A stretch of DNA of 64,000 bases, taken from Candidatus Sumerlaeota bacterium. Its GTDB lineage: Bacteria; Sumerlaeota; Sumerlaeia; JAFGJS01. A model generated the notes under the pieces. That model saw nothing but the letters and a program-made list of their open reading frames with translations, had not been told where the DNA came from and did no database searches. Positions 45,737 to 64,000 of the stretch are shown here, piece by piece. The stretch covers positions 5,895 to 69,894 of the forward strand of contig JAFGJS010000037.1 in assembly GCA_016928995.1 (NCBI GenBank), written 5' to 3'. A program made the translations under genes and the position numbers. Numbering within the stretch: the first letter of the stretch is position 1; each line of letters opens with the position of its first letter.

Positions 45737-45934
45737 GCCCCGGCGCTGTGCGACGGCAGCGCGATAGATTATTCGCTGTCGCGTTGCGCGATGACAGGAA
45801 CGCAGGCTAAATGCGCGGAGCTTCGGCTCCGCAGCGAAATTCACGGTTTTTTTTACACACCTGACGGCGCGCGATGGCGCCGGTTAATTCAGGGCGCATG
45901 ATTCCGCAAGCCGATAAGACTGGCTCAGCAGTTT

Positions 45935-47002
45935 GTGACGGCGCTTGCGGACGGGAGGCAAGAAACAATGATGAACCATGTGATGATTGAAGCGGCCAAT
46001 CTGGACGAGGCGTTGCGCGAGGCTTCGGAGCGCTTCGCCGTGCCGGTCGAGGCGTTGGAATATGAACGCTTGAATCTGCTGGATGAGGATGACTTGCTCA
46101 CGAGCAACATCTTCGAGGAAGACATCCAAAAAGACAGCGAATCGGTGAGCGTGCGCGTGTGGGTGAAGCACGACGCGCTGGCCGAGCGTGGGCGCGATGT
46201 TCTGCAGCGGCTGCTGGATAAAATGCAGGTCTCCGCTCAAGTGACGGTGGATGGCGTGGTCGGCATGCTGCAACTGGGCGTCAGCGCCAGCGCGGACAAC
46301 AATTTGCTGATCGGACGGCAGGGCGAAACGCTGGAGGCGCTGGAATATTTCGTCAATCGCGTCTTGAGCCGCGGCGGACTGGTGCCGCCGCCTGTGATCG
46401 TCGATATCGAGGAATACCGTCAGCGCCGCATCAAATACCTCGAAGACCTGGCGCGGAAAAAAGCGACGCGCGCCGTGAAAACGGGCAAGGAAATCAAACT
46501 GCTGCCGATGAAGCCGCATGAACGCAAGATCATGCACGCGATTCTGGCCGACTTCAAAGGAATCAAGACCTTCAGCATGGGGCTGGACGCTGAACGGCAT
46601 ATCGTCATCTCGCCGTCGGGCGAGTCCGCCGATCCTTCGCAATTCGTGGAAGAAGAGCGCGGCGGCCGGCGCACGGGCGGCCGTTCCGGTCAGGGCGGGC
46701 AGAATTGCGGAAGACAAAATCGTTCCTCTGGTATGCGCCGGGATCGCGACGGGGCTTCGAACGGCGGTCGCGGGAATGCAAATGGCGGACGTGGGAATAA
46801 TGCGAACGGCGGACGCGGGAATGCAAACGGCGGCGCGGGAAATGGCGCCAATCGCCGCAAACGTGGCGGCGTGCATCAAAATAATAGACGGACGCGGCGA
46901 ACGGACGACCGGTTTTTTGAATCCGGCCGCCCTGTGATCAATATGGAGAATATTCCCGATGACATTGGCAATCGCATCGATGATGAAGACCGCAACGTCT
47001 GA
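45935..47002 (+). CDS. Jag/KhpB-like RNA-binding protein (Jag_N, KH and R3H domains) with a Gly/Arg/Asn-rich repetitive C-terminal tail.
   Basis: R3H region (KLLPMKPHERKIMHAILADFKGIKTFSMGLDAERHIVISP); the tail is (GGRGNANG)n. Confidence 0.8.
   Translation: MTALADGRQETMMNHVMIEAANLDEALREASERFAVPVEALEYERLNLLDEDDLLTSNIFEEDIQKDSESVSVRVWVKHDALAERGRDVLQRLLDKMQVSAQVTVDGVVGMLQLGVSASADNNLLIGRQGETLEALEYFVNRVLSRGGLVPPPVIVDIEEYRQRRIKYLEDLARKKATRAVKTGKEIKLLPMKPHERKIMHAILADFKGIKTFSMGLDAERHIVISPSGESADPSQFVEEERGGRRTGGRSGQGGQNCGRQNRSSGMRRDRDGASNGGRGNANGGRGNNANGGRGNANGGAGNGANRRKRGGVHQNNRRTRRTDDRFFESGRPVINMENIPDDIGNRIDDEDRNV
46735..46860 (+). repeat. In-frame 24-nt tandem repeat (about 4-5 units) encoding the GGRGNANG repeats of the Jag tail.
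   Basis: GGCGGTCGCGGGAATGCAAAT GGCGGACGTGGGAATAATGCGAAC GGCGGACGCGGGAATGCAAAC GGCGGCGCGGGAAATGGCGCC. Confidence 0.5.
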
Positions 47003-47049
47003 TACGTTGCGCAAAGCGATGGTGAAATAAATCAGGGGCGCTCGCTAAC

Positions 47050-49325: not shown

Positions 49326-49871
49326 TTGAATCCAAACGAGCACACACCGGAAGCCGATGCAGAGGAGATTCGCGGATTGCAACGGCTTTGCGAGGAGCGG
49401 ATCGCGGAGCGGCGTGAACTCGCGGCGAAGCAATTCCGCCGTGCGGAGGAGTTCCTTTGGTCGCTGCACACGCCGGAGCAGATCAACCGGCTGGTGGGCG
49501 ACATGCAGCGGCAGGGATACGCGGAGGGCGCGCGGCGTTCGTCCTGCGCCACGCGATGGCTGCCGCAACGGCTGTATTGCTGGCTGGCGCGCAAGGTCGC
49601 CGGGCCGTTCGCCGCGCCGTACGTGCAGGGGGCGCTGCTGAATTACAATTACGTATTGCGCGAAACAGCGCTGGATTTATACGCCGTGCTGGACCTGCGA
49701 TACGGACGGCCGGAAGAATTACTGAAGGCCGATGAGGGCAAGTCGCCCGCGAAGGATGATGAATTGCGCGCGCTCCGGCGCCTGCTCGATGCTTGCCAGG
49801 CGCGGCTCGATCAGCTTGATTCCAGCGGCAAGTTAAACAGCGACGACGGCGAGGGCGGCGTTCAATCATGA
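49326..49871 (+). CDS. Hypothetical soluble protein (181 aa).
   Basis: An ORF with a 4-nt stop/start overlap with the next gene. I recognise no motifs in it. Confidence 0.4.
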   Translation: MNPNEHTPEADAEEIRGLQRLCEERIAERRELAAKQFRRAEEFLWSLHTPEQINRLVGDMQRQGYAEGARRSSCATRWLPQRLYCWLARKVAGPFAAPYVQGALLNYNYVLRETALDLYAVLDLRYGRPEELLKADEGKSPAKDDELRALRRLLDACQARLDQLDSSGKLNSDDGEGGVQS

Positions 49872-51727
49872 TCGCTGGGGTGGATTTGCAATATTTGCTG
49901 GGACCGGGGCGCCGCGAGGAGTTCGGCCGGCGTCTGCTGAAGTTCTTCGCCCAATGGGCGCGCGATTTTCCCGACGACCCGTTGATCGGTTTCCATGTTA
50001 AGCCTATCGAGGATGGCGGCGCTTTACCGTTTCGGGAAATCCGGCGATGGCCGTTGCGGCGTCCGCTCAAGGCGTTGCTCGACGCCGGACCGATGACAGC
50101 GCAAGCCTGGGAGGATCAGGCGGGATGCGCGGAGCTGGACTGGCTGTTGATCCCTGGTCCGCTGGATGAATCCACGCTGTTGCCGGGCGGCGCTCCCTGC
50201 CGCATCGCCGCCATCGTGAGCGACGCGGACTTGCGCCGTTTCACGCGCACGCCGCGTCTGCCCGATGCGAGCATCGCCGGCCGCAACACGCTGAGCAACC
50301 GGCTGCAAGTTTTGCAGAATTACGAACGGGTCTTTTTTTTCACGGACATCGAAACGCCGCCTCAACGTCTGTCCGGTCTGGCCGACAAGATCGAGTTCAG
50401 CGAAAAAAGCGGCAATGAATATAATCATCGCGGCTATGATCCGGCTGTTTTTCGCGGCCAATTGCAGGAGCGCATCCAGAATTTTCCCGCGATTCAATCC
50501 GCGGCCCCGGCCGCCGGAAAAGCCAAACGCAAGCTGGCCGTGTTCACGCCGCTGCGGCCGGTGCGCTCGGGAATTTCCGACTACAGCGAGCATCTGCTTG
50601 CGCAGCTGGCCGATGATTTTGAGATCACTGTTTTTCTCGACGGCTATCACCCGGCACGGCAGGAGCTCTTTCCGCCGTTACGCTGGCATCACGCGGCGGA
50701 CTTCGAGCGCTGGCTGCGCGCCGGGAATGAGGACGCCGCTCTGGTGTATGTGATGGGCAACAACGAATGCCATCGCAACATTTATCACTGGTCGCGGCGC
50801 GCGCCGGGGATCATGGAATTCCATGACGACGTTCCTCTGGCGTATGGCATGCATGACCGCAACTTCTGGATGAACCGGCTCGATTGGCTGGAATTGGTTG
50901 AACAGGAGCACGGCCGCACATTGGAGGAACTGCACCGCAATCCGCCCGACGATGAGACGTTATGCGACCTGCTGCCCATGACGCGCGCCTTCGCCGACGG
51001 CCAGCGCGGCTGCATCGTGCACAACGAATGGCTTGGCGAGCAGGTGCGCGGCAACTGTCCGCAACTGCCGGTCTGCAACACCGGACTGGGTGTGGATTGG
51101 CCGGAACCGCCGCATGAAAACGGCGCGCGGCGCGCGGCCCTGCGAGCCAAATTCGGCGTGCGGGAGAGCCATGCGCTTTTCATCGTCATTGGCGAGATCA
51201 ATCCATTCAAGCGCTTTGAGCAGATTTTCCGCGGCTTCAGCATCGCGCGCATGGCCTGCCCGGATATCATTCTGATTGTGGCCGGCGGCGCGCAGGATGA
51301 AGCGCTTAACCGCTATATCGCGGACGGCATGGAGCGCTATGGTCTGGACGACGGCGCGGCGATACGATTGGGATATCTGGAGCGTGAGGATTTCCTCGGT
51401 TTGATCGATGCGGCGGACGCCGGCATCAACCTGCGCTGGCCCACGCTCGGCGAGACCAGCGCCACGCTGACTCAATTGATGGGCGCGGGCAAGCCCGTGC
51501 TTGTCACTAACCGCTGTCAATTCAAGGAATACCCGGACGAAGCCTGCTGGAAAATCGAGCCCGGCGAACGCGAGGCAGAGCGCATCGCGCAGGCCATCGT
51601 CGCCCTGGCGCGCCATCCGCGTCATCGCCGCGCCATCGGCGCCTTTGCGCAAGATTACATCGCGCGTTTTTCCTGGGACCAGGTCGCCGCGCGCTTTCGT
51701 GATTTCATCGAGCAGGTTTATGGCTGA
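49868..51727 (+). CDS. Glycosyltransferase family 4 (GT-B) C-terminal domain fused to a roughly 300-aa N-terminal domain of unknown function.
   Basis: C-terminal FIVIGEINPFKRFEQI ... ADAGINLRWPTLGETSATLTQLMGAGKPVL (GT4 EX7E-like region). Confidence 0.7.
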   Translation: MIAGVDLQYLLGPGRREEFGRRLLKFFAQWARDFPDDPLIGFHVKPIEDGGALPFREIRRWPLRRPLKALLDAGPMTAQAWEDQAGCAELDWLLIPGPLDESTLLPGGAPCRIAAIVSDADLRRFTRTPRLPDASIAGRNTLSNRLQVLQNYERVFFFTDIETPPQRLSGLADKIEFSEKSGNEYNHRGYDPAVFRGQLQERIQNFPAIQSAAPAAGKAKRKLAVFTPLRPVRSGISDYSEHLLAQLADDFEITVFLDGYHPARQELFPPLRWHHAADFERWLRAGNEDAALVYVMGNNECHRNIYHWSRRAPGIMEFHDDVPLAYGMHDRNFWMNRLDWLELVEQEHGRTLEELHRNPPDDETLCDLLPMTRAFADGQRGCIVHNEWLGEQVRGNCPQLPVCNTGLGVDWPEPPHENGARRAALRAKFGVRESHALFIVIGEINPFKRFEQIFRGFSIARMACPDIILIVAGGAQDEALNRYIADGMERYGLDDGAAIRLGYLEREDFLGLIDAADAGINLRWPTLGETSATLTQLMGAGKPVLVTNRCQFKEYPDEACWKIEPGEREAERIAQAIVALARHPRHRRAIGAFAQDYIARFSWDQVAARFRDFIEQVYG

Positions 51728-52406: not shown

Positions 52407-53717
52407 TCATCTTTCATATTGCGAGTATATTTTTCGCGCTTCGTCGGCGATGATGCTGAGGCCGCGTTGGACGGTCGCTTCGTTTTGGGCGTAGCTGATG
52501 CGGAGGCATTCGTCGCGCTGTTTCCATTCGCCTTCGAGGCCAGGAAAGAAGTGGCGGCCGGGCACAACCAGCACGCCGCGGGCTTTGAGGCGTTCGTAAA
52601 ATTCCTGCGAGCTGATGGGCAGATCGCGAAACCATAGCCAAAGGAAGAACGCGCCTTCGGGTTTATGCACGCGGCAGTCGATGCCGCGCAGCTCGCGGCG
52701 CAATTGCTCGACGGCGCGGTCGGCGCGCGACTGGTAGTAGGGCCGGATCACGTCGCGGCCAAGGCTGAGCAGTTTGTCTTCGCGGATGAGTTCATTGGCC
52801 AAGGTTGCGCCGATGCGGTTCGGCGCGAGGCACATGATCGCGCTGGCGGCGGAGATGGCGGCGATGATTTCCTCGCTGGCCACGACGATGCCGGTGCGCA
52901 GGGCGGGCAGGCCGAATTTGCTCAGGCTCATGCAGAGTATCGTGCGCGGACTCCATTGCGGCGCGGCGTCGCTGAAGACGATGCCGGGAAACGGCAGTCC
53001 GTAAGCGCCGTCGATGATCAGCGGCACGTCGCGCTCCTCGGCGAGGCGCATCAGGCGCTGCGTCTCCTCGTCGCTCATCATGTTCCCCGTGGGATTCGTC
53101 GGGCGCGAAAAGCAGATCGCGCCGGCGTCGTCAACGGCCTCCAGGCGCTGGAAATCGACGTGGTACTTGAACAGCAGATCGTCGATGTATTCGATCTCCG
53201 GCTGGACGGCGCGGAAGATGCCAGGCTCCAACCCCACGTCGGAATAGCCGATGTATTCCGGCGCGAGCGGCAGCAGAATTTTTTTGAACGAGCCGTCGCC
53301 ATAGCGTCCGGCGAACATATTGAACAGGATGAAGAACGCTCCTTGGCTGCCCGTGGTCAGCGCGATGTTGCGCGGTCCGACGTCCCAGCCGCATTCCCGG
53401 TGCAGCAGCGCGGCGAGCGATTCGATGAAAGCCGGGTTGCCCTGCGGCGAATCGTAATCGCCGATGGCGCGCTCGAATGCGCCGTCGCGCTCCAGGATGC
53501 GCTGCATGGCGCCGCGGATGCATTGCTGCACCTCGGGGATATGGGCCGGATTGCCGCCGCCGAGCATCAGCATGCCCTTTTCGGAGAGCGCACGGCCCAA
53601 GTCGTCCATCAACAGATTGATGCCGGAGTTGCTCGTAATCTTTTGGCCGAATGTTGAAAGTTTCATTCTGTTTTTTTCAGGCTTTCTTGCGCCAGTTGTT
53701 CGGTCATTCTTCGTCAA
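52407..53717 (-). CDS. PLP-dependent class I aminotransferase (valine-pyruvate / AvtA-like).
   Basis: Fold-type I motifs; SLSKFGLPALRTGIVVA contains the PLP-binding Lys context. Confidence 0.8.
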   Translation of the reverse strand: MTKNDRTTGARKPEKNRMKLSTFGQKITSNSGINLLMDDLGRALSEKGMLMLGGGNPAHIPEVQQCIRGAMQRILERDGAFERAIGDYDSPQGNPAFIESLAALLHRECGWDVGPRNIALTTGSQGAFFILFNMFAGRYGDGSFKKILLPLAPEYIGYSDVGLEPGIFRAVQPEIEYIDDLLFKYHVDFQRLEAVDDAGAICFSRPTNPTGNMMSDEETQRLMRLAEERDVPLIIDGAYGLPFPGIVFSDAAPQWSPRTILCMSLSKFGLPALRTGIVVASEEIIAAISAASAIMCLAPNRIGATLANELIREDKLLSLGRDVIRPYYQSRADRAVEQLRRELRGIDCRVHKPEGAFFLWLWFRDLPISSQEFYERLKARGVLVVPGRHFFPGLEGEWKQRDECLRISYAQNEATVQRGLSIIADEARKIYSQYER

Positions 53718-55104
53718 ACAATTCGTACTTCAGCATTTTATTATGCAGACTTTTGCGGCTGATACCGAGCAGGTCGGCGGCCTCTTGACGCCGGCCTTCC
53801 ACCTTGCGCAAGGCAGCGAGGATCATCTTGATCTCCAGTTTGGCGGTCTGCTCTTCGATCACGTCGCTCATGGATTGCGAGAAATCGAAGCCGCTCATCG
53901 ATAGATCGCCGGATTCATCCGTCTGCGGTTCAAGGCTGGCCGGCAGTGACGGGAGATGTTGCGGTTGCACCACGCCCTCACCGGTCAGCACCACGCCGCG
54001 TTGCACGGCGTTTTGCAGCTGGCGGATGTTCCCTGGCCAATTATACGAAACAAGGATGTCCATCGCTTCCGGATCGATGGAACGCACATCCTTGTTGAAG
54101 GCTTTTGAATAGTGGTCCAGGAAGTGATGCACCAGCAGCGGCAAGTCCTCCATGCGTTCGCGCAACGGCGGCGCCTCGATGGAGATCACATTGAGCCGGT
54201 AGAATAAATCCTCGCGAAACTTGCCCTGGTTCACTTCGGCTTGCAGGTTCCGGTTGGTCGCGGCGATCACGCGCAGGTCCACATGGATCGTCTGCACGCT
54301 GCCCACGCGCGAGATTTCCCGCTCCTGCAGCGTGCGGAGGAGCTTCGGCTGGAGGCTCAGCGGAATCTCGCCGATCTCATCAAGGAAAATCGAGCCGCCG
54401 CTCGCCGTTTCGAACAGCCCCTGCTTGCGCTGAAAGGCGCCGGTGAACGCGCCCTTTTCATGGCCGAAAAGCTCGCTTTCCAACAGCGTGTCCGGGATCG
54501 CCGCGCAGTTCACCTTGGTCAAATCCTGGTCGCGGCGCTGGCTGAGCGCATGGATCGCCTCGGCGATGAGCTCCTTGCCCGTGCCGCTCTCGCCGGTGAT
54601 CAGCACCGTCGCGTCGGAGTCGGCCACGCGCTGGATCATTTCGAACACGCGCTTCATCGCCGCGCTTTCGCCGATGATGTTCTGATACGCCGAGTGGCTG
54701 CGCAGCTGCGTTTGCAACTCCGCCACGCGGCGGGCCAGCGCGGCGCGCTCCACGGCCCGGCCGACGACCGTGCGCAGCTCCTGAATGTCGAAGGGCTTGT
54801 GAAACAGATCATACGCGCCGAGCTCATAAGCCTCGCGCGCGACCTTGGGCGAGCCGTAGGCCGTGACGATCAGGCAGACGGAAGACGGGCGCTTGTCGCG
54901 GATTTGCTTCATCGCCTCGATGCCGCCGAGGCGCGGCATCTTGATGTCGAGGATGATCACGTCGAAAACGGATTCCTGCGCTTTATCCACGGCCTGCTGT
55001 CCGTCCACGGCCTCGTCGATCTCATATCCCTCGCGGCGCAGCATTTCGCGCAGTGTCAAACGCACATTCAATTCATCATCGGCAATGAGGATTTTCGGCG
55101 ACAA
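53704..55104 (-). CDS. Sigma-54-dependent transcriptional response regulator (NtrC family: REC, AAA+ and Fis-type HTH).
   Basis: [15 protein letters not shown] Walker A, the GAFTGA sigma-54 contact motif and a C-terminal HTH ([16 protein letters not shown]). It overlaps the aminotransferase start by 14 nt. Confidence 0.9.
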
Positions 55105-55235: not shown

Positions 55236-55310
55236 GCGCGTGTAGCACAATGGCTAGTGCATCGGCCTTCCAAGCCGAGGATACGGGTTCGATTCCCGTC
55301 ACGCGCTCCA
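55236..55310 (+). tRNA. tRNA-Gly (anticodon UCC) with encoded CCA.
   Basis: Hand-folded cloverleaf: acceptor GCGCGTG/CACGCGC, D-arm GCAC-AATGGCT-AGTGC, anticodon stem TCGGC/GCCGA with loop CTTCCAA, and T-arm ACGGG-TTCGATT-CCCGT. Confidence 0.85.
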
Positions 55311-55497
55311 CCGAAATTGGGCGAATTACGAAGATTTACTTTTCTTCTTCCGCCGATTTTTCCGAGTGTTTTTCCAATAAAGTTTTGGTGTTGTCACAGG
55401 CGGCTTTCACCGAGGCATGATTGTTCATGCAACGGCGTCTATCGTCAGCGGTTGTCCGTTTCCACAGGTAGGATCGGGCTAAGCGTTTTCTTATCAG

Positions 55498-57039
55498 TTA
55501 TCGTTCGTATTGCAATTCGTCATTGGATTCTGTTTCGGCTGCGCCCGGTTTCCATGATGAGGCTGGACCTGAAGTTTGTTTTCCATAAGAAATGATAGCT
55601 TCGCTTAACTGGCTTCCCGTAACCGGAATGGGCGCTTTGATGAGTTCGGGAATATTATAGGCCCAGGCCAGCGAATCATAGTACGCCGGATTCTGCTGAG
55701 GCAGCAGAAACGGCTTGTGCGCCACGCCATTCGCATCGACATAACTGAAGAACGGCCGGGAAAAACGGCCATCAAGGCGTTTGCTGTTGAAAGCAATCCA
55801 GCGGCCATTGCTCGACCAGCTGTGCCAGGTGTCGGGCCGTTTGCTGCTGATGGATAGTTTGCGGTGTTCGCCGCTCTCCATATCCATCAGGTATAAGTCG
55901 CACTGGGCCTGGTGAATGGGAAAGTCGCTGTATGGCGAAACGTTGAACAAGAGGAACCGGTCATCGGGCGAGAATCGCGGCTGGTTGATGCTGCCGTCCA
56001 CTGCTTTCGCGGATAGAACCGTCTCCAGCTCGCCCCATTCGCCGCTTTCCGCATCATAGCGGATTCGCATTAAGTCGCAGCGCACTTCACGATAGCGTTC
56101 CTTCGGGAGCTGCGGCGCGCTGCAGAAATACAAGTATCGGCCGTCGCGGGACCATTCTGGAAATGTCTCCATGCGATCGATCTTGCTGATCTTGTTTTCT
56201 CGGATGACTTCTCGCGTATCCAGGCGGTACAGGTCCAAATCGCAGGCGAGGTCGAACACGTCGCGCACTTCCTGGACCTTCGTATGGATCAGCATCTGGA
56301 ATTTGTTGTCGGTGATGGCCAGAAGCTTGCCATTGGGATGCCAGGCGGAAAAACCGGTCTTCCCGGACGTCAGTTCGGTTTTCGTGCTGATGGGTTCGAC
56401 TTGATTATTTTCAACCAGCAACATGGGGGTGCCGTATGTTGAGGATCTTGCCTGAAGCGCCATATGATGGGGATCATTATTGAGATAAGAATGGCAGTGC
56501 ATGCACCCATAGCTGAACAACCGGTTATGCAATACGACGGATTCTTCGTAGTTTTCCAGATTCCTTTGATAGAAGCCCATGTCGTTCCAGATCACCGAAA
56601 TCATGATTTTCCGGTATGTTAAGAAAGGGTCGATGCCAGCGTCCGCAACGGTGTTTTCAATCGTCTCGAAGCGGCTCCAGTTGTTCTCGCTGTCTTTCAC
56701 GTATACATCAAAATAAAGTTTCCGCCCATGGTTGGCGTCCAGCAGTTTTTTCCAACGATCCACCGGGATTTCAATGTCTGGCTTTCGACTGTGAATTTCG
56801 ATGGGATCGCCGTCTTTGGAGTAAATTTTCACATAATGACCGGCGCCGTTTTCTTCGATCAGAAAATTCAGGGGAGCGATATTCGGAGGGATGACGACGC
56901 CGCAATAGTCCGGACGGATTTTAGCGGGACGGTCGATTGAGCGGGATGCATCGATGACCGCCGTCTTATCGCATTGGGTGAAAACCAACGCGCAAGCCAA
57001 CAATGCTAACGTCAATGTCGATGATGCCGTAGTTCTCAT
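55498..57039 (-). CDS. Secreted PD40/TolB-like beta-propeller protein with a conserved CxxCH motif (module copy A).
   Basis: Signal peptide ending in VFTQC. PD40-like repeats (WHPNGKLLA, WSRDGRYLYF, FSPDDRFLLF, WSSNGRWIAF). GCMHCH at about 56489-56506. Confidence 0.6.
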   Translation of the reverse strand: MRTTASSTLTLALLACALVFTQCDKTAVIDASRSIDRPAKIRPDYCGVVIPPNIAPLNFLIEENGAGHYVKIYSKDGDPIEIHSRKPDIEIPVDRWKKLLDANHGRKLYFDVYVKDSENNWSRFETIENTVADAGIDPFLTYRKIMISVIWNDMGFYQRNLENYEESVVLHNRLFSYGCMHCHSYLNNDPHHMALQARSSTYGTPMLLVENNQVEPISTKTELTSGKTGFSAWHPNGKLLAITDNKFQMLIHTKVQEVRDVFDLACDLDLYRLDTREVIRENKISKIDRMETFPEWSRDGRYLYFCSAPQLPKERYREVRCDLMRIRYDAESGEWGELETVLSAKAVDGSINQPRFSPDDRFLLFNVSPYSDFPIHQAQCDLYLMDMESGEHRKLSISSKRPDTWHSWSSNGRWIAFNSKRLDGRFSRPFFSYVDANGVAHKPFLLPQQNPAYYDSLAWAYNIPELIKAPIPVTGSQLSEAIISYGKQTSGPASSWKPGAAETESNDELQYER

Positions 57040-57164
57040 GCCCTTGCCCGTTATCGATCCCTTGATCTATTTTATCCAGCTGGATCGGCCGTGAAACGCT
57101 GCACCGGCCTCCTTGACCGATGACTCTTTTTAACGGATTAAAAGGTCCGTGATGCGCTTTCAAC

Positions 57165-59189
57165 TTACCGTATCAATTGACTCCCTGAAAATCCATAGAC
57201 GTTGTAGAAATAATAAGTGTCGCCGAATTTATCCGCCAATTCGGTCAAGGCCGCCTGTTTATCGTTATGCTTATTCAATATATTGATGAGCTCCTGAAGC
57301 CGTGTGATCGATTCCGGACTGATTTCATAGCCATATAAATCCGGTCTTTGACCCGTGGTCTGCATATAGATGACCAATGCTTCCTCAAACGCTCGCGGGA
57401 GCGTGGCATACTGAAAATCGCGCAGACGTTCGATATTATTAACAATCTCCAACACCTCTCTGCGCTGAAAATAACTGGCCATTAAGTATTCAAAGGCCAT
57501 TCGGTTATGCTTGTTTTGGGCGAGCAACTCGGTCAGCGAGCCTTCGTTGATACTGTCATCATCCGGTATCAGGGAACGAATCCGTTGGATTTCCTCGTCC
57601 GAGGAAAAATCAGGATCCTCTTCGAGCCGGTCCAACAGCTCCTGCGCCTGGTCCCTGTAGAGGAAATCCTCGCGCAGGATGCGCAACAACGCGCGGGCGG
57701 TCTCTGGTTGCCGCTTGACGATGTTGATCAGGGCCAGCCGCTTCAATGCCTGCGGATGGTATTTCAATCCCGCCAAAGCGTCCCAGGCGAAGTTCTCGGC
57801 TTCATTGACGCGGCCCAGCTCATAATAAGTCTCGCTGAGATCTAAAAATCGGGCCCTTCTTTCCATGGCGCTTAACGATCTTGATGCCGCTTCGACGTGA
57901 TAAAGACACCAGTCGATTGGCTGGGGATAGGCGAACATCTCATCAAGCAACCGGCCGCTATGGTAGAGCGCTCGATTGACATCATGGCAATAACAGACGT
58001 TGAAGTATTTCGTGCCAAGGTTGCGGGCTTCGTACAGAACTTCATTCCACATCCGCTGCTGGGAGTAAAAGCGGATGCGAAGATAATGTCTTTCTTGATG
58101 ATTCGTTGATAGCAGGACGACGCAGATTAGGATAATCAGCAGAATTATCGCGGATAACATACCATGCGATGGGTTTGCATTCTGGCTCGTATCGGCTTTG
58201 CTTTGCTGAATCTTATCGTCTTTGCTTTTCCGGCTTTTCTTTTTTCGGGCTTTGCCCTTATCGGCATCGACGCGCCTGAATCGGTTCTGGAGCTTGTCGC
58301 TGTTGTAGCGCCAATACACACTGGCCAATCCGGCGATCGGAAAAAAAACATAGAGAAAATAATAGAGCACGGGTCCATTAAAATAAACGGATAATGGGTC
58401 GTAGGGCAGGACTGCCGGATCATTGGGCAGGATGCAGAGATATACTTCGGCGGCGCTGATGTCGAACAGCAGCGCGCTGACTACGATGGGGATCAGCGCC
58501 GCTGAGATCAACGCCCCAAGATCCACAAGCCAAGCGCGTTTAACGAGCAATTCGTACAGCGCGCAGAGCATCACGAAAGGCAGATATGCGAAAACCGCCG
58601 CGTAGTAAATCACAGCGGAAAAAAACAAAAACAAGATGAAGCGAAGCGCGCCGCGCCGTATGCATGCGCGAGTATAAAGATAGAACAGCAGCAGACCAAG
58701 CGCGATGGATAAGTTCTCCATCATGAAGTGATAGTAGCGGCTGTATTGCAGCAGAACCACAATCGCCGGAATGAAGCGGAGCGCCCGCAGCCGTCCGTCG
58801 CTCATCACGTCCAGGCATTGGCCGGTTCCCCAGCTCAGCAACCAGGCGACAGCGGTGATGATCAGCGCTCCCGCCCATGAATAGTGGAAACAATAGAGCA
58901 GCACGCCCGCCGCGCACATCGCCGTCTTGCCGGGAAAACCTGGTATCTGCTCAAATCCCCCCGAACCCGGAACGTAAGGCGGCAGGCGCCAATAGCTCAT
59001 AATGCTGCAGTGAAGCAGCCTCGGATCGAGATAGAGGAAGATATAAAGAAAAAACAAGAGATAAAAAAACAGGTGAAAAAAAAACGTCGCGCGCCATCCG
59101 TCCCTCGCCGCATCTGTATTTGGCGCGTCAACCATCGTTTGCTGCTCCTGCAGAATTGAAGATTCAGTAGCATCAAGCCATGCCTGCAA
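57165..59189 (-). CDS. Polytopic membrane protein (about 10 TM) with a poly-basic loop and a C-terminal TPR-like helical domain (module copy A).
   Basis: The hydrophobic N-terminal half has an RKKKSRKSK loop. The C-terminal roughly 330 aa is helical-repeat-like. It is a paralogue of 61014..63065. Confidence 0.55.
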   Translation of the reverse strand: MQAWLDATESSILQEQQTMVDAPNTDAARDGWRATFFFHLFFYLLFFLYIFLYLDPRLLHCSIMSYWRLPPYVPGSGGFEQIPGFPGKTAMCAAGVLLYCFHYSWAGALIITAVAWLLSWGTGQCLDVMSDGRLRALRFIPAIVVLLQYSRYYHFMMENLSIALGLLLFYLYTRACIRRGALRFILFLFFSAVIYYAAVFAYLPFVMLCALYELLVKRAWLVDLGALISAALIPIVVSALLFDISAAEVYLCILPNDPAVLPYDPLSVYFNGPVLYYFLYVFFPIAGLASVYWRYNSDKLQNRFRRVDADKGKARKKKSRKSKDDKIQQSKADTSQNANPSHGMLSAIILLIILICVVLLSTNHQERHYLRIRFYSQQRMWNEVLYEARNLGTKYFNVCYCHDVNRALYHSGRLLDEMFAYPQPIDWCLYHVEAASRSLSAMERRARFLDLSETYYELGRVNEAENFAWDALAGLKYHPQALKRLALINIVKRQPETARALLRILREDFLYRDQAQELLDRLEEDPDFSSDEEIQRIRSLIPDDDSINEGSLTELLAQNKHNRMAFEYLMASYFQRREVLEIVNNIERLRDFQYATLPRAFEEALVIYMQTTGQRPDLYGYEISPESITRLQELINILNKHNDKQAALTELADKFGDTYYFYNVYGFSGSQLIR

Positions 59190-59395
59190 ACCATGCGAAA
59201 GTCAAGCGCAATGCCGGAGCGGTCAATTAAGGGGGTTCTTAAGGATTAAGTTTCGAGCTTAAGAAATGTAATCATTTGGATGCAAAGATATAAGGGAAAT
59301 CGCTATCAATTTAATTCCGGTGGACTGCCGGCGATGAGCACGGGCAGCCGTTGTTGTCGCTTCGAAAGGAAGGATCGGCTTGGTGTTTTCCAGAT

Positions 59396-60940
59396 TTATT
59401 GTTCGTATTGGGATCCGGCATTGGCATTTGTATTCGCCGTGCCCGGCTCCCATGAGGAAGCTTGACCTGGGATGAGTTTTTTATATGAAACGATGGCTTC
59501 GCTCAACTGACTTCCCTTCACCTGGATTGGCGACTTGATCAGTTCGGGAACCTGCAGCACCCAGACTAACTTGTCATAGTATGCCGGATCCTTTTGAGGC
59601 AGCACAAAGGGTTTGTGCGCCTCGCCGGTCTCGTCTACATAACTGATAAAGGGCCGGGAAAAACGGCCATCGATGCGACGGCTGCTGAACACGATCCAGC
59701 GGCTGTTGCTGCTCCAGCTGTGCCATGATTCGTTTTGTTCGCTGCTGATGGACAGCCTGCGATGCTCGCCGTTGGACAAATCCAGCATATGCAAATCGGA
59801 TTTGAGCTTATCCACGGGAAAATCGCTATGATCCGCAACGTTGAATAAAAGAAACCGGCCGTCGGGCGAGAAGCGCGGCTGGTTGATGCTGCCGTTCACT
59901 TCCTTTGCGGTCAGGACGGTCTCCAGTTCACCCCACTCTCCGCTTTCCATGTCGTAGCGGATTCGCATCAAATCGCATCGCACCTGGTGATAGAGTTCCT
60001 CAGGCAGTTGCGGCGCGCTGCAGAAATACAGGTATCGCCCATCGCGGGACCACTCTGGAAAAGTCTCCATGCGTTTCGGATTGCTGATCTTGCTATTGCT
60101 GATAACCTCTCCGGTTTCCACGCGATACAGATCCAGATCGCTGGCGTGGTCGAACACGTCGCGCACTTCCTCGGCGTTCGTATGGATCAGCATTTGGAAT
60201 TTATTGTCGCTGATGGCAAGCAGCTTGCCGCTGGGATGCCAAGCGACGAAGTTGACTTTGCCGGACGTCTGATCGGACTTCACACGTTTGGGCATGACTT
60301 CATCATTTTCGACCAGCAGCATCGGCGTGCCATATGCGCCGGATCTTGTCTGCAGCACCATATGATTCGGATCGTTGTTGAGGAAAGTATGACAATTCAC
60401 GCATCCGTAGCCGAACGACCGGTTGTGCAACACCACCGATTCATCGTAGTTTTCCAGATTCCGTTGATAAATGCCCAGATTTCTCCAGATGAGGCAAAGT
60501 TGGATTCGCCGGTACGCCAGGTAAGGATCAATCTCCTCCTGCGTGATGGAATTCTCGATCGGCTCGAACCGGCTCCAGTTGTTTTCGCGGTCTTTCACAG
60601 ATACTTCAAAATAAAGTTTCCGCCCGCGGTTGGAGTCCAGCAGTTTTTTCCAACGATCCACCGGGATTTCAATATCTGGCTTTCGACTGTGAATCTCGAT
60701 AGGATCGCCGTCTTTGGAGTAAATTTTCACATAATGACCGGCGCCGTTCTCTTCGATGAGAAAATTCAAGGGGGCGATATTCGGAGGGATGACGACGCCG
60801 CAATAGTCCGGACGGATTTTCGCGGGACGGTCGACAGAGCGGGATGCACCGACGGCGGCCTGCTTGCCGCACTGGACAAAAACCAACGCGCAAACTGACA
60901 ATGCCGCAAACGTCAATGTCAATGATATCCTCGTTTTCAT
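59396..60940 (-). CDS. Secreted PD40/TolB-like beta-propeller protein with a CxxCH motif (module copy B).
   Basis: Paralogue of 55498..57039. GCVNCH at about 60385-60405. The N-terminal roughly 110 aa is nearly identical to copy A. Confidence 0.6.
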   Translation of the reverse strand: MKTRISLTLTFAALSVCALVFVQCGKQAAVGASRSVDRPAKIRPDYCGVVIPPNIAPLNFLIEENGAGHYVKIYSKDGDPIEIHSRKPDIEIPVDRWKKLLDSNRGRKLYFEVSVKDRENNWSRFEPIENSITQEEIDPYLAYRRIQLCLIWRNLGIYQRNLENYDESVVLHNRSFGYGCVNCHTFLNNDPNHMVLQTRSGAYGTPMLLVENDEVMPKRVKSDQTSGKVNFVAWHPSGKLLAISDNKFQMLIHTNAEEVRDVFDHASDLDLYRVETGEVISNSKISNPKRMETFPEWSRDGRYLYFCSAPQLPEELYHQVRCDLMRIRYDMESGEWGELETVLTAKEVNGSINQPRFSPDGRFLLFNVADHSDFPVDKLKSDLHMLDLSNGEHRRLSISSEQNESWHSWSSNSRWIVFSSRRIDGRFSRPFISYVDETGEAHKPFVLPQKDPAYYDKLVWVLQVPELIKSPIQVKGSQLSEAIVSYKKLIPGQASSWEPGTANTNANAGSQYEQ

Positions 60941-61013
60941 GGCCTTTCCCGTTGTAAATCCCTTGAGAAATTTCTAACCAGCCTGATCGGCGGCCCCGCG
61001 CCGTATTTTCAAA

Positions 61014-63065
61014 TCACCGTATCAACTGACATCCTGCAAAGCCATAGATGTTATAGAAATAATATGTGCCGCCGAATTGATCCGCCAATTCGTTCAAAGC
61101 CGCCTGTTGATCGCCATACTTACTCGATGCGCTGAGGAAAGTTTGGAATCGCTTGAGCGATTCCGGGCTGATTTCATAACCATGTAAATCCGGTTTTTCA
61201 CCCGTGGTCTGAGTATAGATGAGCAATGCTTCCTCAAGCGCTCGCGGGATTGCGGAATAATGAAATTCACTCAGACGTTCGATGTTTTGAACGATCTCCG
61301 GAACCTTTCCGCGCTGAAGATAATCGACCATTAAGTATTCAAACGCCATCCGGTTATGCTTGTTTTTGGCGAGCAACTCTTCGAGAGAACACCCATAGAT
61401 GCTGTCGTTGTCCGGCGTCAGGGAACGGACTTGTTGAATTTCCTCGTCCGCAGAAAAATCAGGATCTGCCTCGAGCCGGTCCAACAGTTTCTGCGCCTGG
61501 TCCCTGTAAAAAAAATCCTCACGCAAGGTGAGCAGGAACGTGCGCGCGGTATCCGGCCGGCGCTTGACGATATTGATCAAGGCCAGCCGCTTCAAGCCCA
61601 TTGGATGGTATTGCAGCCCCGTCAAGGCGTCCAAGGCGTAGTGTTCGGCGCCATTGACGCGCCCCAGTTCATAAAAAGTCTCGCTGAGATCCAAAAATCG
61701 AGCCCTTTTTTCCATCGCAGATAATGATCTTGATGCAGCTTCCACATTATAAAGGCACCAGCCGGTTGGTTGGGGATAGGCGAACATGTCATCAAGCAGC
61801 CGGCCGCTATGATAGAGCGCTCGATTGACATCATGGCAATAGCAGACGTTGAAGCGTTCCGCCTCGAGTTTGCGGCCTTCGCGCAGAACATCGTCCCACA
61901 TCCGCTGCTGAGAATAATAGCGAATGCGAAGATAGTGTCGTTCTTGATGATTCGTTGAAAACAGGACGGCGCTGAAAATGACAATCAGCAGGATCGCCGC
62001 AGATAACATGCCCTGCGATTGGCTTGCAATCTGGCTTGTATCGGCTTTGCTTTGCTCAATCTTGCCTTTTTTGTTTTTCCGCTCTTTCTTTTTTTGGGCT
62101 TTGCCCTTATTGGCCTTGAAACGTCTGAATCGATCCTGGAGCTTGTCGCCGTTATAGCGCCAATACACGCAAGCCAATCCAGCGATCGGAAAAAAAACAT
62201 AGAGAAAATAATAGAGCACGGGTCCATGAAAATAAACGGTTAATGGATCGTACGGCACGATTGCCGGATCATTGGGCAGGATGCAAAGATATGCTTCGGC
62301 GGCATTGATGTCGAACAGCAGCGCGCTAATCGCGAGGGGGATCAGCGCCGCTGAGGCCAGCGTCCCAAGACCAACAAGCCAAGCTCGTTTGATCAGCGAT
62401 TCATACAGCGCGCAAAGCATCACGAACGGCAGATATGCGAATACCGCCGCGTAGTAGATCGCGACGGAAAAAATTAAAAACAGAACGAAGCGAAGCGTGC
62501 CACGCCGCATGCATGCGCGAGTATAAAGGTAAAACAGCAGCAGACCAAGCGCGAGCGATATATTCTCCATCAGGTAGTGATGGTAGCGGCTGTATTGCAG
62601 CAGGACCACAATCGCCGGAATGAAGCGAAACGCCCGCAGCCGACCGCCGCTTATCGCATCCAGGCATTGGCCGGTTCCCCAACTCAGCAGTCCGGCGGCG
62701 GCGGTGATGATCAGCGCTCCCGCCCATGAATAGTGGAAACAATAGAGCAGCACACCCGCTGCACACACTGCGGTTTTGCCGGGAAAATCCGGCATTTCCA
62801 CAAATCCTCCCGAGCCCGGAACGTAAGGCGGCAGACGCCAAAAGCTAGGAAGACTGAAGTGAATCAGCCTTGGATCGAGATAGAGGAAGATATAAAGAAA
62901 AAACAGGAGATAAAAAAACAGGCTAAAAAAAAACGCCTCGCGCCTCCCGCCGTTCGCTGCATCTGAATGCGGCGCGTCAACCATCGTCCGCTGCTCCCGC
63001 GGTGTTTTTGCAGAATTGAAAATCCAATAGCAACAAGCCATGCCTGCAATCCGCGCGAAAGTCAA
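61014..63065 (-). CDS. Polytopic membrane protein with a C-terminal TPR-like domain (module copy B).
   Basis: Paralogue of 57165..59189, with the same architecture and a similar poly-basic loop (QKKKERKNKKGK). Confidence 0.55.
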   Translation of the reverse strand: MTFARIAGMACCYWIFNSAKTPREQRTMVDAPHSDAANGGRREAFFFSLFFYLLFFLYIFLYLDPRLIHFSLPSFWRLPPYVPGSGGFVEMPDFPGKTAVCAAGVLLYCFHYSWAGALIITAAAGLLSWGTGQCLDAISGGRLRAFRFIPAIVVLLQYSRYHHYLMENISLALGLLLFYLYTRACMRRGTLRFVLFLIFSVAIYYAAVFAYLPFVMLCALYESLIKRAWLVGLGTLASAALIPLAISALLFDINAAEAYLCILPNDPAIVPYDPLTVYFHGPVLYYFLYVFFPIAGLACVYWRYNGDKLQDRFRRFKANKGKAQKKKERKNKKGKIEQSKADTSQIASQSQGMLSAAILLIVIFSAVLFSTNHQERHYLRIRYYSQQRMWDDVLREGRKLEAERFNVCYCHDVNRALYHSGRLLDDMFAYPQPTGWCLYNVEAASRSLSAMEKRARFLDLSETFYELGRVNGAEHYALDALTGLQYHPMGLKRLALINIVKRRPDTARTFLLTLREDFFYRDQAQKLLDRLEADPDFSADEEIQQVRSLTPDNDSIYGCSLEELLAKNKHNRMAFEYLMVDYLQRGKVPEIVQNIERLSEFHYSAIPRALEEALLIYTQTTGEKPDLHGYEISPESLKRFQTFLSASSKYGDQQAALNELADQFGGTYYFYNIYGFAGCQLIR

Positions 63066-63209
63066 GCGCTATGCCGGGAACGGCCGGTTAACCGTTACAT
63101 TGTATACAGGATCGCGCTTGATCTGCAATCAGTTGACGACGCGGCATCAGATCCAGATCTGCCTTGTGGCGAATCCGAGTTGCGTTTTGCGCGGCGACTT
63201 TCTTCACGC

Positions 63210-64000
63210 TCATTCAAGCCGTTTCCGGTAATACTCCTGAACGATAAAGAAGGCCTGCTTGCGTTCGCCGCGCTCGGAGACGAGGCCCTTGCGATTCCAG
63301 CCGTCCTGGATGCCGGGCAACATGCGCAGCGGCGTGCGGAAGTCGACCAGAACCCAGGGCGCACAGCCGCGGAAATTGGCGATCCGCTCCAGCATGGGAA
63401 ACGACTCACGATAGACCCACGCCTGGAACTCCTCCGTCCAACGCGTCTCTTTGTCCCCGTGAAAACCAAACAGCGCGCCGGCGCCAAACTCGCTGATGAT
63501 CAGCGGCTTGTCGAAGCGCACTTCGTAATCGCTGGTCTTGCATGCATCGGGCAGGCCGTCGTACCAGCCGATATATTGATTGAGCGCAATCACATCCAGC
63601 TGCTCTCCGAGAGCGTCGCTGATGACCTTCTTGCCTGTGCCTTCGATCTTGTCCGGTTGCAGCGCCGCGCTGACCAGCCGCGTGTCATCGAGGCTCCGCA
63701 CATGATCGGCCATCGCCTTCAGGAATTTATTGCGCGGCTCCGTCCTTCCCGTTTCGTTGCAGATCGACCAGATGATCACGGCGGCGCGGTTGCGGTCGCG
63801 GTTGATCATCTCGCCCATCTGGCGTTTGGCGTTTTCCAGGACTTGGTCGTCGCCCCAATGGATGCCCCAGTAAAGCGGCAATTCCCCCCACAACAGGATT
63901 CCCCACTCATCGGCGAGCCGGATGATGTTTTCATTATGCGGATAGTGCGCCAGCCGGACGAAGTTGCAATTCAATTCCTTGGCGTAACCCAGAAATCGCT
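63210..64000 (-). CDS. Glycoside hydrolase family 2 (beta-galactosidase/beta-glucuronidase-like) TIM-barrel domain; 5'-partial, the N-terminus lies beyond the window end.
   Basis: NFVRLAHYP ... IIWSICNE (catalytic acid context) ... ISEFG (nucleophile context). Confidence 0.8.
   Translation of the reverse strand, partial: RFLGYAKELNCNFVRLAHYPHNENIIRLADEWGILLWGELPLYWGIHWGDDQVLENAKRQMGEMINRDRNRAAVIIWSICNETGRTEPRNKFLKAMADHVRSLDDTRLVSAALQPDKIEGTGKKVISDALGEQLDVIALNQYIGWYDGLPDACKTSDYEVRFDKPLIISEFGAGALFGFHGDKETRWTEEFQAWVYRESFPMLERIANFRGCAPWVLVDFRTPLRMLPGIQDGWNRKGLVSERGERKQAFFIVQEYYRKRLE

Follow-up and report, generated by a model that had tools for sequence, protein, structure and literature searches.

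Tandem DUF6057 and CxxCH propeller gene pairs from Sumerlaeota as a putative envelope complex

The window analysed here, 64,000 nucleotides of DNA from a Candidatus Sumerlaeota bacterium, contains two tandem copies of a gene pair, A and B. They represent a large and unstudied envelope module in which the genes are strictly paired and amplification has occurred repeatedly. A is a DUF6057 membrane protein with a TPR-like domain and B is a propeller protein with a CxxCH motif. We propose, with a probability of roughly 0.4, that each unit supplies the two subunits of a 1:1 complex at the inner membrane and periplasm. An anonymous DUF thereby becomes a defined and testable system in phyla whose envelopes are poorly understood: its partners are obligate, two further genes are linked to it, its topology is predicted, and there are candidates for a cofactor site and for a docking peptide.

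Results

The four minus-strand ORFs of the initial annotation (A1, B1, A2 and B2) lie where it placed them (Table 1), and its reading of a true tandem duplication that takes in the non-coding ends is borne out by blastn comparison of unit 1 with unit 2. The A halves align at 83.6% identity over 2074 nt (63077-61007 versus 59217-57158) and the B halves at 78.5% identity over 1651 nt (60991-59353 versus 57089-55451), with protein identities of 74% for A1/A2 and 72% for B1/B2. As the unit alignments extend ~45 nt beyond each B stop and ~90 nt upstream of the probable A start, non-coding sequence was duplicated together with the genes. The earlier length of ~680 aa for A agrees with the mechanical ORFs but is likely too long. 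With a dN/dS of 0.93, the 17-18 codons that precede MVDAP show neutral evolution, which places the probable starts at 62984 (A1) and 59135 (A2) and, judged from these codons, gives a true product of probably ~656 aa. The public annotation of A2 (P0121) uses the same 656-aa start. The tandem copies would represent paralogous pairs, duplicated as units and kept under purifying selection, and most likely differ in specificity.

Table 1. Features of the window and their coordinates
Feature	Coordinates	Strand	Basis
Duplication unit 1 (leader, A1, spacer, B1, 3' non-coding tail)	59353-63077	-	blastn versus unit 2
Duplication unit 2 (leader, A2, spacer, B2, 3' non-coding tail)	55451-59217	-	blastn versus unit 1
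Conserved leader upstream of A1, contains TTGACT	62985-63077	-	
A1, DUF6057 protein, probable start MVDAP ATG	61014-62984	-	PF19529 E 2e-77; pre-MVDAP dN/dS 0.93
A1 mechanical ORF, 683 aa	61014-63065	-	
B1, 514 aa: signal/anchor, beta-sandwich, six-bladed PD40 propeller	59396-60940	-	Pfam PD40 E 7.5e-15; 72% identity to B2
B1 CVNCH (aa 180-184), CxxCH motif	60389-60403	-	invariant among homologues
B1 C-terminal peptide GSQYEQ-COOH	59399-59416	-	C-terminal motif statistics
Conserved leader upstream of A2, duplicate of A1 leader	59136-59217	-	
A2, DUF6057 protein, probable start 59135	57165-59135	-	
A2 mechanical ORF, 674 aa	57165-59189	-	
A2 ~10 TM helices	58107-59135	-	
A2 periplasmic TPR-like domain	57168-58106	-	
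B2, 513 aa: signal/anchor aa 1-29, beta-sandwich 33-131, TolB-like propeller ~139-470, disordered tail	55498-57039	-	
B2 CMHCH (aa 179-183), CxxCH motif	56491-56505	-	invariant among 58 homologues; aligned with CGNCH of D paralogues
B2 C-terminal peptide ELQYER-COOH	55501-55518	-	C-terminal motif statistics, 93 complete B proteins
tRNA-Gly(TCC)	55236-55310		
Sigma-54 activator with receiver domain, ~400 nt from B2	53704-55104		
GH2 fragment	63210-63974		

In Pfam, both copies of A match PF19529 far above its cutoff of 29.8 bits, with 260.9 bits for A2 and 261.8 bits for A1. The matches take in positions 47-568 of the 569-position profile, and the DUF6057 domain is present in all A homologues. 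This near-full-model match provides a label without a function, and the obligate B partner lies outside the family definition. A is predicted to span the membrane ~10 times with its N-terminus inside, and to place a ~310-residue TPR-like superhelix in the periplasm. A TPR fold was found for this C-terminal domain, as anticipated from the earlier description of a polytopic membrane protein ending in helical repeats, and the weak structural matches of A include the TPRs of 8sxf and 6sar. The view that neither A nor B can be placed in a characterised family also holds, with DUF6057 the only Pfam match for A and A named in no paper found; DUF6057 itself has no mention in the literature searched. 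The NCBIfam profile search returned no match for A, and PDB sequence searches with A and B yielded nothing useful, just a 45-residue match to the putative TolB 2ojh. A fold search revealed no structural similarity between A and any transporter fold. The membrane domain of A does not resemble membrane proteins that interact with quinol or handle haem, and residues 1-343 contain no invariant or near-invariant His. Should its fold prove to be new, this domain would be a worthwhile structural target. A polytopic N-terminal half followed by TPRs on the non-cytoplasmic side is an architecture shared with the TMTC/PMT GT-C glycosyltransferases. The acidic residue conserved in those enzymes where the first external loop opens may have a counterpart in Asp37, which lies directly after TM1 and is kept by at least 80% of 52 sequences; a single residue is not diagnostic. 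No GT-C membrane fold or profile was detected in A.

The description of B as an exported PD40/TolB-like propeller is upheld by both Pfam PD40 and the structural model, and a six-bladed PD40 propeller fold was found. The B2 model has an N-terminal hydrophobic helix at residues 4-29 and all homologues have hydrophobic N-termini, which points to export of B to the periplasm. B may remain membrane-tethered by an uncleaved anchor, where Sumerlaeota copies have a lipobox-like Cys. Residues C179, C182 and H183 (B2 numbering) are invariant in 58 homologues and lie within a confidently predicted beta-strand (179-186) of the first propeller blade, with a conserved Met ~10 residues downstream. The B-like D paralogues have a CGNCH that aligns with this motif, and here too the downstream Met is conserved. 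The B CxxCH probably carries a covalent c-type haem, with another metal or redox centre less likely. Neither Pfam nor NCBIfam identifies a cytochrome c domain in B, no cytochrome occurs among the PDB sequence matches, and the literature yielded no precedent for haem c within a TolB-like propeller. Should the motif bind haem, the structural setting would be a new one for haem of the c type. Among the functions initially offered for an envelope machine, redox is favoured by the CxxCH, whereas glycan assembly is unsupported given the lack of a GT-C-like fold match for A. The propeller also contains many invariant charged residues. Motif statistics for 93 complete B proteins define a conserved C-terminal PWxxRE-COOH, which follows a disordered linker. 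The window copies deviate from it, ending in YER (B2, a Sumerlaeota variant) and YEQ (B1). PF26549 and PF26550 on B homologues correspond to Tricorn propeller blades and add nothing new.

The propeller invites comparison with TolB and, by extension, with a Tol-Pal-type envelope-integrity device in which B binds an outer-membrane or cell-wall partner while A anchors and perhaps energises it. Such a function appears decidedly improbable. B has 14-17% sequence identity to TolB (PDB 1c5k and 7mx5) and scores 36.9 and 28.6 bits against TIGR02800, ~1/10 of the cutoff of 343; NCBIfam matches to B are limited to TolB and Dpp5, far below cutoff. The N-terminal TolA-binding domain of TolB is alpha/beta, whereas that of B is modelled as an all-beta sandwich, and the invariant CxxCH and conserved C-terminal peptide further distinguish B. 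There is no Tol-Pal context, with no tolQRA, pal or ybgF genes nearby, and at least six pairs per genome combined with horizontal transfer misfit a housekeeping envelope system.

A survey of gene pairing across genomes finds B adjoining A in 93 of 98 testable cases, so the objection that the pairing might lack conservation elsewhere does not apply. A and B are translationally coupled and diverge pairwise, one to one. The exceptions, five A genes with no adjacent B, include loci L078 (A-A-A-A-B), L026 and L073. Tandem arrays of pairs, with neighbours 35-91% identical, recur in other phyla, and at least six A-B pairs are present in the window's own MAG. Carriers belong mainly to Planctomycetota, especially Phycisphaerae and Sedimentisphaerales, but also to Sumerlaeota, KSB1 and related uncultured phyla. 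The 77 best loci all derive from MAGs, and Logan run SRR13394437, from the source site, has contigs with the same paralogues. Clustered at 50% identity, DUF6057 sequences form 2,396 groups or more, and both the partner B and the D family, which is B-like, are no less numerous; a literature search found nothing published on any of the three. Neighbours of the pair in other genomes are A, D and C genes, as in the arrangement (A-B)n-D-C, with D proteins combining a B-like part and a TPR array by cis fusion. The initial annotation had missed the CxxCH, the B C-terminal peptide, the arrays in other phyla, the pairs within the window's own MAG, and D and C as linked genes.

The module has been amplified in tandem many times over and has passed between phyla, which suggests an adaptive, substrate-dependent capability. 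Tandem arrays of paralogous pairs would also suit A as a new inner-membrane transporter and B as its periplasmic substrate-capturing or processing partner, with pairs serving different glycans or peptides by a SusC/SusD logic at the inner membrane. Such a partner would be compatible with the substrate gating that PD40 propellers perform in S9 peptidases. The hosts are polymer degraders (PMC8092238), and a GH2 in the window, CBM9+PA14 proteins in 10 loci and sugar oxidoreductase clusters nearby fit the same picture. We nevertheless consider a transporter unlikely, given that A resembles no transporter fold, that the invariant CxxCH and charged propeller residues favour catalysis over binding, and that the carbohydrate-related neighbours are inconsistent among loci.

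At the locus itself the previously named neighbours (tRNA-Gly, sigma-54 activator and GH2) are all present, together with an aminotransferase gene. Module GC3 is 0.58-0.65, whereas the flanks have 0.68-0.82, and a MAG of another phylum carries a closer copy of B, both of which support the accessory-like context that had been suggested. A tRNA-linked integrative island was rejected, as the far end has no tRNA-derived direct repeat and the scanned neighbours include no integrase. The module is neither a phage element nor a defence system of a known kind: none of A, B and C matched a PADLOC family, and viral contigs yielded no relatives. No riboswitch or structured leader emerged, as Rfam identifies the tRNA alone and the leaders fold no better than shuffles. 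A simple scan for an intrinsic terminator separating unit 1 from unit 2 gave no convincing candidate. Sigma-54 control by the adjoining activator is unsupported, since only GG-N11-GC, and no canonical -24/-12 site, is found upstream of A1 and A2. The same promoter absence weighs against the pair as a membrane sensor, in which B would sense periplasmic redox or ligand via haem and A would relay the signal to nearby regulators. This role would account for the receiver-domain activator close to B2 and for the histidine kinase and OmpR-type regulator genes near the pair in ~10 loci. It is, however, highly improbable, as Pfam detects in A neither a kinase or cyclase nor a HAMP or any further output domain, the regulator genes are non-adjacent in most loci and sensors are seldom tandem-amplified.

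Discussion

Our results provide a model for how a paired membrane protein and propeller might cooperate at the bacterial envelope. The C-terminal peptide of B would dock in the TPR groove of A, perhaps close to the conserved residues R388, N444, K474, R520 and N544, and the A TPR domain would thereby recruit or position the working part of B. This part, the sandwich, haem and propeller, may catalyse a reaction, redox or other, on a substrate in the periplasm or envelope, with the polytopic domain of A coupling it to the membrane. Several observations count against the model. The CxxCH sits in a propeller beta-strand with neither cytochrome-c profile match nor precedent, the A membrane domain has no conserved His or quinol/haem-protein similarity for feeding electrons, the C-terminal motifs of the window copies differ, and 5 of 98 A genes stand apart from any B.

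The arrangement of A and B is reminiscent of the apocytochrome chaperones CcmI/CycH and NrfG, TPR proteins that work with the haem lyases CcmF/NrfE, where a membrane-anchored periplasmic TPR likewise accompanies a CxxCH client. CcmI recognises its client through the client's C-terminal region, and dedicated lyases such as NrfEFG exist. By analogy, A could be a dedicated maturation or assembly factor, a TPR chaperone or lyase that recognises the C-terminal peptide of apo-B and aids haem attachment, folding or tethering. The periplasmic TPR domain on polytopic A, the CxxCH and recognition-type C-terminal peptide of B, and one-to-one co-divergence resembling that of dedicated lyases are all consistent with this, as is the match of the D TPR array to PF23914 TPR_CcmH_CycH, which is weak and below cutoff (E 1.7e-9). 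However, the conserved His and WWD motif of CcmF/NrfE are absent from A, neither profile nor fold searches match A to these lyases, and 1:1 translational coupling with pairwise co-divergence separates A-B from Ccm/Nrf. We regard a maturation factor as improbable. For the preferred model of A as a positioning subunit, NlpI-Prc, LbcA-CtpA and BepA offer parallels, since in each of them an enzyme of the periplasm is positioned by a scaffold of TPRs. Their adaptors, however, are either soluble proteins or lipoproteins and serve proteases, whereas A has 10 TM helices and a protease domain is absent from B.

A bolder form of the model, which we put forward tentatively as possible but rather doubtful, is a new envelope enzyme class with c-type haem in a TolB-like propeller whose C-terminal peptide is held by the TPR of a 10-helix protein without a solved fold relative. 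The arrays would then be substrate-specific periplasmic oxidoreductases, and D and a cytoplasmic chorismatase-like C would function in the same pathway. C, which is encoded outside the window, shares a tandem RidA/YjgF-fold architecture and a length of ~340-380 aa with the FkbO/Hyg5/XanB2 chorismatases, but its matches to 5ag3 and 4bps are weak and its TIGR04444 scores of 43.9 and 51.6 bits fall far below the cutoff of 325. A deep protein search with the D family returned only the name 'tetratricopeptide repeat protein'.

The duplicated module

Two units stand in tandem, each consisting of an A gene, for a DUF6057 polytopic membrane protein with a periplasmic TPR-like domain, followed by a B gene, for an exported sandwich and TolB-like propeller protein with a CxxCH motif. 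The four minus-strand ORFs of the initial annotation were recovered where it had placed them, as were the neighbours it named: a tRNA-Gly(TCC), an NtrC-type sigma-54 activator gene and a GH2 fragment. By blastn, the A parts of units 1 and 2 share 83.6% nucleotide identity over 2074 nt and the B parts 78.5% over 1651 nt; protein identity is 74% for A1 and A2 and 72% for B1 and B2. The unit alignments start ~90 nt ahead of the conserved MVDAP Met of each A and run on for ~45 nt past each B stop. They thus overrun the coding limits on both sides, and the duplicated segment takes in non-coding ends as had been claimed.

Genes and duplication units of the module, in window numbering
Feature	Position	Strand	Basis
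A1 ORF	61014-63065	minus	mechanical
B1 ORF	59396-60940	minus	
A2 ORF	57165-59189	minus	mechanical
B2 ORF	55498-57039	minus	
Duplication unit 1	63077-59353	minus	blastn, unit vs unit
Duplication unit 2	59217-55451	minus	blastn, unit vs unit

Between units, the A codons from the mechanical TTG starts to MVDAP evolve neutrally (dN/dS 0.93), whereas the remainder is under purifying selection (0.33 for A, 0.24 for B). This constraint indicates that both copies are functional genes, and its absence before MVDAP places the true A starts most likely at 62984 (A1) and 59135 (A2). The leaders before A2 (59136-59217) and A1 (62985-63077) are themselves duplicated, and contain TTGACT and a GG-N11-GC that is one base off the GG-N10-GC spacing of sigma-54 promoters. 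The sigma-54 activator is the next gene past the tRNA. Neither leader holds a canonical sigma-54 site or an RNA structure signal. The idea that the pair is a sensor feeding nearby regulators is weakened by the lack of such a promoter and of any output domain. Elsewhere in the window, Pfam matches none of three ORFs adjoining an ABC ATPase gene (45884-47014, 49326-49871 and 49868-51727; 376, 181 and 619 aa) at E <= 1e-5.

Pairing and amplification across genomes

Scanning one genome per species for A gave 561 relatives, and all ORFs of the best 77 loci of these 561 were scored with HMMs of A and B. Nearly all of the best 77 belong to Planctomycetota MAGs (Phycisphaerae, Sedimentisphaerales, 'Pirellulales', Brocadiia), with further carriers in Zipacnadia, Aegiribacteria and Omnitrophota. 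A-B pairing is the rule, with a same-strand B no more than 400 nt after A for 93 of the 101 A genes in the analysed loci; three others lie at contig ends and five are exceptions to this obligate adjacency (L078, arranged A-A-A-A-B; L026, A-A-B; and L073). The two genes are translationally coupled, the A stop and B start overlapping by 4 nt in 65 of 77 junctions elsewhere, while the spacers in the window measure 73 nt (60941-61013) and 125 nt (57040-57164), the longer carrying an insertion of ~50-60 nt. Pairing is kept in the remotest DUF6057 members of the sample (27-31% identity), where the gap is 2 nt in a KSB1 pair and an IS1595-family transposase gene lies between A and B in another (L081:9937-10881).

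Pairwise identities of A and of B correlate across 3,403 comparisons (r = 0.88), and within arrays at r = 0.83; the two genes thus duplicate and diverge together. Four pairs stand in tandem at L007, L031 and L077, three at L074 and no fewer than three and a half on the complete chromosome CP070715.1. The recurrence of such arrays, with neighbours 35% to 91% identical, indicates repeated amplification at different times in different lineages. The window belongs to a Candidatus Sumerlaeota MAG, as its proteins are identical with P0001, P0003, P0121 and P0122 of that MAG; further paralogues of A and B on three more of its contigs bring the total to at least six pairs. Searched by profile, 1.84 billion cluster representatives yielded 2,396 DUF6057 clusters at E <= 1e-30. 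One protein (P0320, 1279 aa) contains two DUF6057 units.

Architecture of A and B

A1 and A2 match the Pfam family DUF6057 (PF19529) end to end at ~261 bits; A has no NCBIfam match, and a sequence search found no related PDB entry. The AlphaFold2 model of A, built from 52 homologues, is confident (pLDDT 85, pTM 0.83). Hydropathy and charge analysis gives ~10 transmembrane helices with the N-terminus inside, and the strongly basic loop (16 K/R) before the last of these puts the C-terminal 310-residue helical domain on the periplasmic side. This domain is a TPR-like fold of divergent sequence, with a dense conserved set comprising R388, H392, N444, K474, N544 and the NRMAFEYLM motif. Also conserved are Asp37 just after TM1, PG68-69, the SWAGALIIT helix and Glu195. 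No solved relative of the membrane domain is detectable, and the lack of a transporter fold match weakens the alternative in which A is a transporter of a novel kind and B its partner in the periplasm, on a SusCD-like logic. The public name of A2 (P0121), 'US12 family protein', has no support in profile searches and looks unfounded.

Pfam finds only PD40 repeats in B, in its C-terminal half. In the model from 58 homologues (pLDDT 90, pTM 0.89), a hydrophobic helix at the N-terminus is followed by an all-beta sandwich (33-131) and then by the propeller (~139-470); the tail is disordered. The anchor looks uncleaved in most homologues; in the window copies the hydrophobic stretch ends in a lipobox-like sequence with a Cys. 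The CxxCH (C179, C182, H183) is invariant in all 58 sequences, and so are many aromatic and charged positions of the sandwich (PDY, IPPNIAPLNF) and propeller. Among 93 complete B proteins the last residue is Glu in 71 and Arg occupies position -2 in 64, with a Trp at -5 or -6, for a consensus end of PWxxRE-COOH; the Sumerlaeota copies end in YER, YEQ or YED. Identity as TolB was rejected, since B scores 29-37 bits against the TIGR02800 cutoff of 343, has an unlike N-terminal domain and lacks Tol-Pal gene context. The same failings weaken a reading of the pair as a Tol-Pal-like envelope device. The name 'cytochrome C biosynthesis protein' given to several B homologues (P0019, P0067, P0090) has no profile support and also looks unfounded.

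Linked genes D and C

In eight analysed loci, among them L055 (8062-10362), L014, L020, L030, L032, L048 and L068, B is directly followed by a gene for a ~770-aa protein, D. It combines the same anchor as B, a related sandwich motif and a PD40 propeller (signature SWHSxSxNxxWxVFSSK) with a canonical C-terminal TPR array; its CGNCH aligns exactly with the CxxCH of B, and a downstream Met is also common to both. D is therefore a B paralogue with its TPR partner fused in cis. The fusion argues, independently of the A-B pairing, that propellers of this kind work together with a TPR domain. D belongs to a very large family, in which 8000 of 8000 candidates scored reach E <= 1e-5 and the only annotation is 'tetratricopeptide repeat protein'.

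C is a ~380-aa cytoplasmic protein of two RidA/YjgF-like halves (for example L042:5419-6549, L001:6258-7454 and L027:3106-4440), weakly similar to FkbO/Hyg5 chorismatases but far under the family cutoff. Its gene accompanies the pair in three phyla, in the orders (A-B)n-[D]-C, which recurs, or C-A-B: in Planctomycetota it comes after the final B (or D) and shares its strand, at a locus of Sumerlaeota paralogues it lies 3 nt before A, and in Zipacnadia 305 nt before A. Of the 52 loci that leave enough room, 14 have C no more than 6 kb downstream. At L078 (9890-19597) four successive A genes and one B precede it. The 64-kb window contains neither C nor D.

A model for the pair

A 1:1 complex of A and B at the inner membrane is probable. 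Other TPR domains recognise EEVD and PTS1 peptides, and by analogy the C-terminal peptide of B, with its terminal carboxylate and acidic side chain, might dock in the TPR groove of A, a tentative assignment. The CxxCH and Met of B may, on a slight balance of likelihood, carry a c-type haem. Sumerlaeota have c-type cytochromes (PMC8092238), which makes maturation capacity plausible. This model has weak points: the CxxCH falls within the first blade, in what is predicted to be a beta-strand, B matches no cytochrome profile, full-text searches found no precedent for CxxCH with PD40 or TolB, and the membrane domain of A has no conserved His. The alternative in which A is a dedicated maturation factor for B, as CcmI/NrfG with CcmF/NrfE, is weakened by the lack of haem-lyase features in A. 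In the complex that we favour, the haem-bearing sandwich-propeller would be a periplasmic redox or catalytic head, to which the polytopic domain of A would add coupling to the membrane; the architecture of D suggests that head and TPR are the minimal working unit. We give this overall picture a probability of about 0.4.

The sequences are already catalogued, A as DUF6057 by Pfam and B as 'PD40 domain-containing' by annotators. As no characterised system shares the combination, and full-text searches for DUF6057 or PF19529 returned nothing, we rate it outside known kinds of system. Our claim is of an uncharacterised conserved module, not of a demonstrated new mechanism.

How the window copies may have arisen

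The module shows neither a tRNA-derived repeat nor an integrase to mark a classical island. Its GC3 is 0.58-0.65 against 0.68-0.82 in its surroundings. A 'Pirellulales' MAG (L004, JAFGFZ010000405.1) carries a single A-B pair (L004:6120-9733, compared with window 55551-59073) that is likewise GC-poor relative to its flanks. Its B is 83.7% identical in nucleotides to B2, closer than B1 is; its A reaches only 76-77% identity with either A of the window. Taken with the low GC of both modules, this suggests either transfer between phyla or a binning error. Synonymous divergence between units is uneven: dS is 0.33 in the membrane part of A and the sandwich of B, rises to 0.53 in the C-terminal domain of A and reaches 0.95 in the propeller of B. 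The pattern suggests partial gene conversion after duplication. Together, the GC contrast, the similarity to L004 and the dS pattern fit horizontal transfer, duplication and later partial gene conversion.
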